A DNA stretch of 2,519 nucleotides from Escherichia coli (lineage in GTDB: Bacteria > Pseudomonadota > Gammaproteobacteria > Enterobacterales > Enterobacteriaceae). Both the position numbers and the translations under genes were made by a program. Below are positions 1-2,519 of the stretch, piece by piece. The notes beneath the pieces were generated by a model. It worked only from the letters and a program-made list of their open reading frames with translations, did no database searches and was not told the DNA's origin. The stretch is from the NCBI RefSeq assembly GCF_003334355.1, contig NZ_QOWP01000074.1. The stretch is one strand, 5' to 3'. The stretch's first letter is position 1; every line of letters starts with the position of its first letter.

Positions 1-77
1 AAGGGCGAGCGTAGCGAGTGCCATTTACCCTTGACGACACTCCGGATAAAACAGGCTTGGCAGTGGTGGGGGGTGGC
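1..77. repeat. Terminal redundancy, copy 1: identical to 2443-2519. Indicates a circular molecule of 2,442 bp (wrap-around or assembler k-mer overlap).
   Basis: Base-by-base identity of the first and last 77 nt of the window. Confidence 0.95.
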
Positions 78-101
78 GCGAAGCGACGCCTTCCACCTGC
101 C
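59..101. other. GC-rich nested stem-loop region; alternative or additional oriT or protein-binding candidate.
   Basis: GGCAGTGGTGG (59-69) pairs imperfectly with CCACCTGCC (93-101). An inner GGCG (75-78) / CGCC (87-90) stem encloses the loop CGAAGCGA. Confidence 0.3.
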
Positions 102-149
102 AGACCGCCGTTGATTTTGACCTTCTGGCAGCTTGCTGCCCGAACGATT

Positions 150-192
150 TTGCGTAGCAAAGTCTAGTGAGTACACTATCATCCTGATAGTG
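150..192 (+). promoter_or_regulatory. Candidate mob promoter overlapping a perfect hairpin (CACTATCA-TCC-TGATAGTG, 174-192); candidate oriT/nic region and Mob autoregulation site.
   Basis: The -35-like TTGCGT (150-155) and -10-like TACACT (172-177) are 16 nt apart. The 8-bp perfect inverted repeat with a 3-nt loop lies about 70 bp upstream of the mob start. In MOBV plasmids (pMV158, pBBR1) oriT lies just upstream of mob and overlaps its promoter. No nic site is identified. Confidence 0.3.
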
Positions 193-258: not shown

Positions 259-1227
259 ATGGCGAACTACGCGATAATGCGCTGCAAAAAGCTGACGGGA
301 ATGGGAAGCGTGGCCAGCGCGTTGCAGCACTGCTACCGAGAGCGTGAGACGCCGAACGCTAACGCTGAACGGACACCAGAAAACTACTGCTCTGTGTCCA
401 AATCAACGGATCAGGCAATGGGGCGTGTGCGGGAGCTGCTGCCGGAAAAACGCCGTAAAGATGCGGTACTGGCCGTTGAATACGTTATGACAGCAAGCCC
501 TGAGTGGTGGAAAGAGGCCACACCACGGCAGCAGGCGGAGTTTTTCGCCCGCTCTGAGCAATGGCTGGAGAAGAAATACGGGAAGGATCGTGTTGTGGCG
601 GCGGTGGTTCACCGGGACGAGGCCACCCCGCACCTGTCTGCGTTCGTGGTGCCATTGACGCAGGATGGACGGCTGTCCGCGAAAGAGTTTATTGGCGGGC
701 GGTCAAAGATGCGTGAAGATCAGAGCACCTACGCTGAATCAGTAAAAAAACTGGGTCTTGAGCGCGGCATCGAGGGAAGCCGCGCCACGCATCAGACAGT
801 TCAGCACTACTACGAATCGATAAACCGTGGCACCCGTAGCCAGGTATCGATCTCGCCGGAGGCGCTGGAGCCGCGTGTATTGCGGAAGGGCATTTTCACC
901 AAAGACGTGGAAGATCAGGCAGCCATAGCCAAACGTCTAAGCCACGCAGTGAACGATGGCTTTGCAGGAACCATCGCTATGGCCTCTCAGAGCGCCCAGA
1001 ACGCAAAAAGAGCGCGTGAGCTACAGAAGACTATGGATGCGCAGCAGAAACGCCTACAGAGCGTCACAGAGCCTTTTAAGGGGCTTTCCAGAGAGCAGAT
1101 GACCGAAATCCTGATGATGGCTCAGCGGTTTAAGCAGCAAAACCAGGAAAAGGAAAAACAGCAGCGTATTGAACGTGAAAAACAGCGACAGACGCGATCG
1201 CGTGGCATGGGTGGTATGGAGCGTTAG
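259..1227 (+). CDS. mob: Plasmid mobilisation relaxase, Mob/Pre (MOBV) family, 322 aa from ATG 259. The ORF track's upstream in-frame ATG at 238 would add 7 residues (MPESGGN) and is less likely.
   Basis: N-terminus MANYAIMRCKK...SALQHCYRERE has the same layout as pMV158 MobM (MSYMVARMQK...FKHNER), including the HxxR motif with the conserved His. It also carries RKDAVLAVEYVMT and VVHRDEATPHLSAFVVP (HxDExxPH metal-binding motif), then GLERG and HQTV, all matching MobM from memory. A G-rich Shine-Dalgarno (AGGGGGG, 249-255) lies 3 nt before ATG 259. The long uninterrupted ORF is GC-rich and ends with a Q/E/K/R-rich C-terminal tail. Confidence 0.9.
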   Translation: MANYAIMRCKKLTGMGSVASALQHCYRERETPNANAERTPENYCSVSKSTDQAMGRVRELLPEKRRKDAVLAVEYVMTASPEWWKEATPRQQAEFFARSEQWLEKKYGKDRVVAAVVHRDEATPHLSAFVVPLTQDGRLSAKEFIGGRSKMREDQSTYAESVKKLGLERGIEGSRATHQTVQHYYESINRGTRSQVSISPEALEPRVLRKGIFTKDVEDQAAIAKRLSHAVNDGFAGTIAMASQSAQNAKRARELQKTMDAQQKRLQSVTEPFKGLSREQMTEILMMAQRFKQQNQEKEKQQRIEREKQRQTRSRGMGGMER

Positions 1228-1296: not shown

Positions 1297-1527
1297 TTAA
1301 TCATTCAGATGGTAATCATGTTTTTTTAAAATAGAAAAAGCTGCGTTTTTCTGCTTTGGTGACAAACCCTTAGTTGAGTATTTATTACCGCTAGTTCTAC
1401 GATATATGCTGTAAACACTGCTTAAAAAAGTACGCTCCCAAACAGTCAGAACCTCATTCTTTTTTAGTGAATCATGCAGCATTAGCCTGTCTACATTTTT
1501 AAAAAGTTTATCTTCAGCATTCATCAT
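1297..1527 (-). CDS. Hypothetical small basic protein (76 aa) of unknown function, probably co-transcribed with rep.
   Basis: The ATG-ATG start (1527-1522) overlaps the last 14 nt of rep in another frame. A GAAGG Shine-Dalgarno motif lies about 6 nt upstream on the - strand. Composition matches rep, and the stop is TAA at 1297-1299. No family recognised; the protein is Lys/Ser-rich. Confidence 0.4.
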   Translation of the reverse strand: MMNAEDKLFKNVDRLMLHDSLKKNEVLTVWERTFLSSVYSIYRRTSGNKYSTKGLSPKQKNAAFSILKKHDYHLND

Positions 1528-2017
1528 CCATTACCTTCGTCTGCACCGTTCTTCCATTGGTGTCATAACTGATCTTTAACTCAATTTTCTTTCTTCTTTC
1601 GTAAATTGATGGCCAGTCTCCCCGTGCAAAAAGAAAGGGGTTAGCTTCAAGTTCCCCACGCCCTGCCCGGAAGAATATTTGTTTATCTACAAGAGCCGCA
1701 ATTATGTTTTTAAAGGTCTGATATTCAATATGAACCCTGGGCTGTATGGTTTTTTCAAATCTAGTTTTTGATACAGACACAAACCCATCCCATCCAATCA
1801 GCATTGCCAATTGTAAAAGCACATCATTTTGAGATTTTGATAAACCATGAATCATCGCAATGTCTGCAATGTATAGCTTGACGTAGGGAGGTTCGGCTGG
1901 GATGGAAAAGGTCTCGATCTTAGAGTCTTGTTTTACCTCACCGTTTTCATCCATGTATGTATGCCGTTCAAGCCTAGAAATCTTTTTCGTATTCACTCCA
2001 GCCCCACGTTTCGCCAT
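1514..2017 (-). CDS. rep: Putative plasmid replication initiator (small, 167 aa, iteron-associated). Family not securely recognised; possibly a small RepL-like or winged-helix Rep.
   Basis: The ORF sits directly downstream, on its own strand, of a 22-bp iteron array and an inverted-repeat operator that reuses the iteron core. Its central segment (PPYVKLYIADIAMIHGLSKSQNDVLLQLAMLIGWDG) looks like a helix-turn-helix or winged-helix DNA-binding region. AT-rich codon usage matches the surrounding replication module. The function is assigned from context, not homology. Confidence 0.7.
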   Translation of the reverse strand: MAKRGAGVNTKKISRLERHTYMDENGEVKQDSKIETFSIPAEPPYVKLYIADIAMIHGLSKSQNDVLLQLAMLIGWDGFVSVSKTRFEKTIQPRVHIEYQTFKNIIAALVDKQIFFRAGRGELEANPFLFARGDWPSIYERRKKIELKISYDTNGRTVQTKVMDDEC

Positions 2018-2282: not shown

Positions 2283-2321
2283 AGCAAGGAGTGTACGCAT
2301 TTCTATGTACGGGGAGTGGAA

Positions 2322-2425
2322 ATTCCGCTTCCTCGCTTTGGCTGTTCGTTCCTCGTCGCGTTGCTCCTGCGGTACGCCTCAGCCAAAGCTGCGGCGAGCG
2401 GTTCCTGCTCTTTCAAAGACGATTT
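2322..2425. other. Segment resembling the region just downstream of the ColE1/pMB1 origin (as in pBR322/pUC backbones); candidate single-strand initiation or primosome assembly (ssi/pas-like) element. Contains a 10-bp inverted repeat (2335-2344 / 2380-2389).
   Basis: TTCCGCTTCCTCGCT (2323-2337) and GCTGCGGCGAGCGGT (2389-2403) are exact matches to strings I recall from the pUC/pBR322 backbone. The following 19 nt match at about 13 positions to ATCAGCTCACTCAAAGGCG. The intervening sequence differs and forms the stem GCTTTGGCTG / CAGCCAAAGC with a loop of about 35 nt. Function is assigned from memory. Confidence 0.45.
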
Positions 2426-2442
2426 CATTGCCTGATTTCGTC

Positions 2443-2519
2443 AAGGGCGAGCGTAGCGAGTGCCATTTACCCTTGACGACACTCCGGATAAAACAGGCTT
2501 GGCAGTGGTGGGGGGTGGC
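2443..2519. repeat. Terminal redundancy, copy 2: identical to 1-77.
   Basis: Base-by-base identity with positions 1-77. Confidence 0.95.

Follow-up and report, generated by a model that had tools for sequence, protein, structure and literature searches.

The window, by which we mean the whole stretch of 2,519 nucleotides analysed here, comes from an Escherichia coli contig whose last 77 bases (2443–2519) are identical to its first 77, and we therefore read it as a circle of 2442 bp. Public records of 2442–2445 bp match it at 99.7–99.9% identity in E. coli, Salmonella, Klebsiella, Shigella and Enterobacter, and the region of interest is matched in 103 of 5426 complete E. coli RefSeq genomes, plasmid-borne every time. 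The molecule is a very common cryptic enterobacterial plasmid of 2.4 kb, with the following features in window coordinates:

259–1227, plus strand: mob, the gene for a MobV-family relaxase (NF041497 MobV at E 1.7e-47, with 162 bits where the cut-off is 100).
1514–2017, minus strand: rep, 167 aa, a distant relative of RepL-type initiators (tblastn).
2074–2170, no strand assigned: origin iterons of 22 bp in 4.4 copies with 96% matches (period-22 repeat detection).
2305–2519, plus strand: first part of the open reading frame that crosses the circular junction, codons 1–71 plus 2 nt, judged to be a chance ORF (sequence, translation, no coding signal).
78–114, plus strand: continuation of that frame, with its stop TGA at 112–114 (translation on the circle).
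2323–2401, minus strand (the predicted active strand): single-strand initiation (ssi) hairpin of 79 nt, of the ColE1 ssiA kind (collinearity with ColE1, covariation, folding z).
2402–2421, minus strand: conserved extension of the ssi (TTCCTGCTCTTTCAAAGACG), within a block that matches ColE1 1321–1289 at 25 of 33 positions (ColE1 alignment).
2438–2479, plus strand: hairpin 2, stem CGTCAAGGG/CCCTTGACG with a 22-nt loop (fold, consensus of relatives).
57–103, plus strand: hairpin 3, GGCAG...CTGCC with an inner stem (compensatory changes, conserved G.T pairs on the plus strand).
127–140, no strand assigned: hairpin 4, GGCAGC TT GCTGCC, outside the ORF and past its stop (compensatory GGAAGC..GCTTCC in relatives).
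148–192, plus strand: putative MobV oriT region, with inverted repeats at 149–161 and 174–192 and GTGAG/T between them (sequence and fold).
2443–2519, no strand assigned: terminal duplication of 1–77, an assembly overlap of a circular contig (self-identity, public records of 2442–2445 bp).

The replicon is of the iteron/Rep type, its modules being arranged in the order ssi (2323–2401), 22-bp iterons in 4.4 copies (2074–2170) and rep (1514–2017), with 153 nt between the iterons and the start of the ssi. Among the searches made, tblastn alone links Rep to RepL, at 23–36% identity to RepL-annotated genes, and Pfam and NCBIfam profile searches gave no match to it; the Rep of one relative is annotated as MarR-family. 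The preliminary description had spoken of a ColE1-like region, and this likeness holds for the single-strand initiation site and not for the replicon. Rfam at E<=1 found neither RNAI/RNAII nor any other known RNA family in the whole window, although RNAI was detected in ColE1 itself, the positive control, at 73.8 bits, and a ColE1-type replicon was rejected on these grounds. Two smaller items lie nearby. A 76-aa ORF on the minus strand (window 1297–1527) shares 14 nt with the 3' end of rep and corresponds to the RefSeq hypothetical protein WP_124788667.1, which has no NCBIfam match. Between the AT-rich origin region and the ssi, GGCATTTTTAGACACTGAAAAACTGCC followed by T7 at 2250–2283 forms a terminator-like hairpin, which was missed by a simple terminator scan and is partly conserved in relatives.

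This layout recalls the pHW126-like plasmids (pHW126, pIGRK and pIGMS31), in which an ssi-like palindrome is followed by a conserved region (CR), four 20-bp iterons and a winged helix-turn-helix (wHTH) Rep (PMC6854812; 10.1101/2022.12.05.519187), and in two of which, pHW126 and pIGMS31, a MobV module is joined to the REP module (PMC2831885; PMC6854812; 10.1101/2022.12.05.519187). The plasmid described here likewise has an ssi, an AT-rich region, four iterons of about 20–22 bp and a small rep whose product may be wHTH/RepL-like, and it pairs a MobV module with a REP module as those two plasmids do. Its Rep differs in length, with 167 aa against 201 aa for RepM. The plasmid appears to match the pHW126-like family by the published description of its layout rather than by sequence alignment.

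The frame that concerns us lies in a 57% GC arc of 411 nt between the AT-rich rep module and mob. It had been described as opening at ATG 2305, running without a stop to the end of the window, resuming at 78 on the circle and closing at TGA 112–114 to give about 83 aa, with an AAGGAG motif at 2286–2291, 13 nt before the ATG, and as being missing from the linear ORF list; each of these particulars agrees with the circularised sequence and its translation, as do the N-terminus quoted there and the GC-rich setting, and the product is 83 aa long (MYGEWKFRFLALAVRSS...HLPDRR). The nearest in-frame stop upstream of the ATG is the TAG at 2257. When the 411-nt arc was shuffled 2000 times with its dinucleotides preserved, 11.8% of the shuffles contained an ATG-initiated frame of at least 83 codons; for a 683-nt arc the figure was 11.1%. 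The length of the 83-codon frame is not above chance. The same arc holds other open frames, of 61 aa from GTG 2291 and of 107 aa in antisense, the latter running on the minus strand from 260 down to 2379, across the circular junction and over the start of mob. This antisense ORF is longer than the flagged one, is likewise invisible to linear ORF calling, and varies from 22 to 107 codons across relatives.

For comparison we drew on 17 distinct related sequences, found in plasmid records and in contigs of genomes and metagenomes. When metagenomes were scanned with a 17-mer taken from hairpin 3, most of the matches were chance ones on long contigs of unrelated DNA, the few true relatives being L134, L140, L198 and L210. 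Two tests had been named in the preliminary description, conservation of the reading frame and pattern of substitution, and both came out non-coding, which bears out its suggestion of a chance ORF over structured non-coding DNA. The ATG is kept in nearly all relatives, the N-terminal codons (M.GEWKFRFL) are conserved too, and six haplotype groups reach the same stop from this ATG (79–97 aa), several lineages regaining it by way of indels whose lengths add up to a multiple of three. In five of the 11 haplotype groups, the frame is cut or diverted, leaving 49 aa in L008/L198b, 41 in L009, 63 in L011, 72 in L066 and 3 in L198c. Elsewhere it stays open by switching, through changes of −6, −7 and +1 nt in the L004 group and of −6, +1 and −1 nt in L010. 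As a result of such switches, the frame takes the highly conserved GCGGCGAGCGGTTCCTGCTCTTTCAAA as LRRAVPALSK in the window but as CGERFLLFQK in L004, and the conserved DNA TTCGTCAAGGGCGAGCG.AGCGAGTGC as FVKGERSEC or IRQGRAERV depending on the lineage. Since the same conserved DNA is read in different frames, conservation acts at the level of the DNA.

The substitution pattern is flat. Over the C-terminal 132 nt, compared among the four haplotypes that share the frame, the nine variable sites (a small sample) are distributed 3:3:3 over the codon positions and comprise six replacement and three silent changes. Counted by eye, about four of eight roughly independent module combinations are open against about 30% expected, a difference that is not significant but still counts slightly in favour of coding, and the relatives have stop-free runs of 70–94 codons in several other frames. 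We considered whether openness in relatives could itself count as evidence of coding and rejected this, given the frame switches, the equally open antisense frame and the flat codon-position profile; an open frame carries little coding weight here because the switches take place over conserved DNA in a stop-poor, GC-rich stretch. Signals of expression and homology are similarly sparse. AAGGAG is present in the window type only, its place being taken by CTGGAG, ACGGAG or TTCGTG in relatives, and a simple promoter scan of 2000–2519 found no sigma70-like promoter. The 83-aa product has no Pfam match even at E<=10 and no NCBIfam match, and it matches only nine of 5.8 billion protein clusters, mostly partially. 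All nine come from these same plasmids, on contigs that are about 2 kb long except for one of 4 kb and one fragment. The ORF has been called in a few cases by gene callers and once by a submitter ('GP05'). Among the 40 E. coli RefSeq matches listed, out of 103 matching genomes, none has an annotated feature under it, nor is any feature annotated there in L002, in which the region is internal to the record. The junction frame came out against a gene in every test that could be run, and it is almost certainly no gene; what support for coding is left comes down to the conserved ATG and to a frame that is open in about half of the lineages.

Codons 7–33 overlap a 79-nt element bounded by the flanks TTCCGCTTCCTCG and GCGGCGAGCGG, and both sides of this element align with ColE1. 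Window 2323–2337 is identical to ColE1 1364–1350 (15/15, TTCCGCTTCCTCGCT), and window 2389–2421 matches ColE1 1321–1289 at 25 of 33 positions, the first 14 of which are identical (14/14, CTGCGGCGAGCGGT), so that the two blocks are collinear (window 2323–2421 against ColE1 1364–1289). RNAI lies at 645–749 in ColE1, which places the origin near 1198 and the matching segment 90–165 nt downstream of it. At this ColE1 location ssiA (n'-pas), a site of the phiX174 type, has been described, where PriA assembles a primosome for lagging-strand synthesis (PMC3167613), and the ssi of the ColE1 family has been described as an 82-nt stem-loop (PMC5935869). The element in the window shares with ssiA of ColE1 and pBR322 the identical flanks in the same order, the position beside the origin, and a hairpin in which the base stem CCGCT/AGCGG leads through an internal loop to a variable stem. 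It differs in that its core measures 79 nt rather than the 56 nt of ColE1, in its unrelated central part, and in serving an iteron/Rep replicon, whereas ColE1 is primed by RNAII.

The pairing inside the flanks has been kept through extensive sequence change. A scan for the two flanks, taking one genome per species, returned 120 loci with 48 distinct cores of 51–79 nt. At least five perfect Watson–Crick pairs lie just inside the flanks in 17 of the 48 cores, compared with 1.3% of cross-paired controls, in which the 5' and 3' arms were taken from different cores. At least 13 different stem sequences occur among the 48, and many cores have in common an architecture of CCGCT/AGCGG base stem, two-pair step and variable stem. 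Within 11 long-type cores, for which the structure was named by us rather than derived by folding the alignment, both partners have changed in eight pairs, and a covariation score of 0.198 compares with 0.085 for shuffles; neither value was reached in any of 500 shuffles. A control in which the structure was slid by −1 also scores high, owing to a second class of cores shifted by one nucleotide. RNAalifold did not recover the variable stem from the cores of variable length, because the two classes differ by one nucleotide in register. The element of the window folds better than its shuffles on both strands (z −2.8 and −3.1), and fold energy does not separate the strands, the bottom one being the more stable in 27 of 48 cores and the top one in 21. 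Judged by sequence comparison, the DNA under codons 7–33 is an ssi of the ColE1 ssiA kind, and every feature of such a site that could be tested was found in it. By homology with ColE1, whose active ssiA strand is the displaced one and carries 5'-GAGGAAGCGGAA-3', the element would depend on PriA, and its active strand is probably the minus strand of the window, on which that sequence lies.

The same core also occurs in other replicons. Matches to the ssi portion of the query occur in 451 plasmid records, of which 198 are conjugative, and a near-identical core of 79–80 nt lies about 500 bp upstream of rep, in the same orientation to rep, in the IncX5 plasmid pCAV1741-16, in a 33.8-kb MOBP/MPF_T Salmonella plasmid and in the Arsenophonus RepA plasmid pArsFIN8. 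The flanking sequences in these three plasmids are unrelated, and the frame of the window ORF has no conserved start there and ends shortly after the hairpin. Since the frame is absent around the same core elsewhere, it is the hairpin beside the origin, and not the frame, that forms the unit under selection. The ssi core is a mobile module common to ColE1-type, IncX, Arsenophonus RepA and pHW126-like replicons.

Several further observations were made in the course of these comparisons. Long-type cores are located at 2412–2545 in L253, 2501–2601 in L254, 2501–2581 in L255 and 349–421 in L003. In the last of these, GCTTTTGCTG/CAGCAAAAG shows changes that compensate each other, and one base pair of the base stem is swapped. 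From the iterons to mob, the arc is a mosaic in L004–L011, L031, L066 and L198, in which the ssi occurs as four alleles (79, 66, 73 and 56 nt) and the downstream spacer as several, in different combinations, which indicates frequent recombination among these small plasmids. One relative, L007 (NZ_CP091702.1, pKFu019_4), has a tandem duplication of 54 nt at about 770–870 of its locus, in the stretch that separates the ssi from hairpin 2; the duplication extends the chance ORF to 97 aa and ends in the 8-mer GGCGAGCG, which is common to the right flank of the ssi and the loop of hairpin 2, and it points to slippage or unequal exchange between two GGCGAGCG motifs. Many of the matches in L013–L132 consist of a 56-nt pMB1/pUC-type core on short contigs, in assemblies of Streptomyces, Myxococcus, Cutibacterium, Streptococcus, Microbacterium and similar genera, and are most likely cloning-vector contamination.

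Downstream of the ssi, hairpins 2 and 3 underlie codons 45–83 of the ORF. Across eight distinct relatives, the two hairpins together have 35 consensus pairs, four of them with a compensatory change, and several G.T pairs are conserved on the plus strand, whose fold is better than that of the minus strand by 3.6 kcal/mol. A folding z of −3.9 was obtained for the 219 nt that extend from hairpin 2 to the presumed oriT. The putative oriT itself lies about 100 nt upstream of mob, and a spacing of about 100 bp between oriT and the downstream mob is described for pHW126 (PMC2831885). On its plus strand, the loop of hairpin 2 contains CGAGCGTAGCGAGT, which is identical to the core of the active strand of ColE1 ssiA (L012 1331–1344). 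Hairpins 2 and 3 are confined to small mobilizable plasmids (166 records, 153 of them mobilizable). Since the MobV prototype nicks the mob-coding strand (PMC5737340), these two hairpins could be a second ssi, on the opposite strand, that serves the transferred strand.

Different readings of the arc need to be weighed against these data. One would make the frame a real, lineage-specific small basic protein of 79–97 aa that is overprinted on the ssi and the hairpins and is perhaps expressed from a promoter like P_MS4, a Rep-activated origin promoter near the CR of pIGMS31 for which no downstream gene has been identified (10.1101/2022.12.05.519187). The vacancy downstream of P_MS4 speaks for such a protein, as do the ATG kept in nearly all relatives, the stop common to six haplotype groups despite compensating indels, the GGAG-containing motif upstream in some lineages, and the entry of the ORF as 'hypothetical protein' or 'GP05' in a few databases. 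About half of the haplotype groups nevertheless have a truncated frame, which in one case ends at codon 4, and the middle of the frame is read in different frames over conserved DNA; codon positions vary 3:3:3, with a replacement-to-silent ratio of 6:3; the length is within chance, and the ribosome-binding motif is spaced at 13 nt and not conserved. Neither a promoter-like site nor a domain nor a homologue beyond these plasmids was found in the searches made, the RefSeq matches listed have no annotated feature there, and the same ssi core sits in IncX and Arsenophonus RepA plasmids without such a frame. Taken with these points, a real protein seems highly improbable, and a recently born protein of 79–97 aa, held open by compensating frameshifts and expressed from a P_MS4-like Rep-activated promoter, is scarcely credible.

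Two other readings accept the structures and place their function elsewhere. The hairpins might act as RNA and not as single-stranded DNA, for instance by forming a structured 5' leader on the mob mRNA or part of a small regulatory RNA. This would suit hairpins 2 and 3, which lie upstream of mob, occur only in small mobilizable plasmids, and keep their G.T (G.U) pairs, with the fold better by 3.6 kcal/mol, on the plus strand, which is the mob-sense strand. G.T pairs are, however, equally allowed in single-stranded DNA such as the transferred strand, no Rfam family appears at E<=1 and no promoter-like site in 2000–2519, and the ssi core, a homologue of the DNA signal ColE1 ssiA, also adjoins the origins of plasmids without MobV, which leaves an RNA function very unlikely. 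Alternatively, the inverted repeats could work as duplex DNA, as sites or cruciforms for Rep, MobV or a host protein, for instance as a relaxosome accessory at oriT or as an incompatibility or copy-control site. Fragments of pIGRK and pHW126 that contain the ssi do show incompatibility (10.1101/2022.12.05.519187), hairpins 2–4 occupy the interval from the ssi to the presumed oriT and accompany small mobilizable plasmids, and the folding energies of the ssi are about equal on the two strands. The stems covary freely in sequence while their pairing is kept, which fits a structural requirement rather than sequence-specific binding to a duplex; moreover, the ssi core is common to replicons with unrelated Rep proteins, with or without Mob, and the G.T pairs that hairpins 2 and 3 conserve point to a single strand that folds by itself. 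We regard a role as duplex as unlikely.

We therefore favour, with considerable confidence, a model in which the 83-codon frame arises incidentally from a non-coding arc, GC-rich and poor in stops, where selection keeps the secondary structure of the DNA. In this model, Rep would nick the rep-sense strand near the iterons, and replication would displace that strand, which is the minus strand of the window. The assignment draws on pIGMS31, in which RepM nicks the repM-sense strand just upstream of the CR (10.1101/2022.12.05.519187), and the displaced strand would be the minus strand here if the same holds. Lying just 5' of the nick, the ssi would be the last part to be exposed as a single strand and could then fold into its long hairpin, on which the host PriA primosome (PriA, PriB, DnaT, DnaC–DnaB and DnaG) would assemble, PriA dependence being presumed, and prime synthesis of the complementary strand. 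A site just 5' of the nick occupies the usual position of lagging-strand origins in rolling-circle plasmids. In ColE1, the role described for the ssi is to load the primosome on the displaced strand and to prime lagging-strand synthesis there (PMC3167613; PMC5935869). When the ssi is deleted from pIGRK, pIGMS31 or pHW126, replication persists, copy number goes up and multimers appear (PMC6854812; 10.1101/2022.12.05.519187), and the proposed mechanism, carried over by analogy, fits this phenotype.

A parallel in role can be drawn with ssoA and ssoU of rolling-circle plasmids such as pMV158, which are also structured, orientation-specific and non-coding, and lie just upstream of the leading-strand nick. 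They become exposed on the displaced strand, and pMV158 requires its sso after conjugative transfer as well (PMC5737340). Those origins recruit RNA polymerase rather than the PriA primosome and have no sequence similarity to the element described here, so the analogy is one of role only.

An ssi has already been described for pHW126-like plasmids, and what we report is a chance ORF over a known kind of element. The finding is an ordinary one and carries little weight as a discovery. Its use lies elsewhere: (i) A false gene candidate, visible only on the closed circle, is removed. (ii) The true features are put in place, namely the ssi and three further hairpins between the iteron origin and the MobV transfer origin. 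(iii) The GC-rich structured intergenic arcs of small plasmids yield long open frames on both strands, and a non-coding frame of this sort can remain open in relatives. Since the ssi core is a module common to several replicon types, it is also useful for the annotation of plasmid origins.
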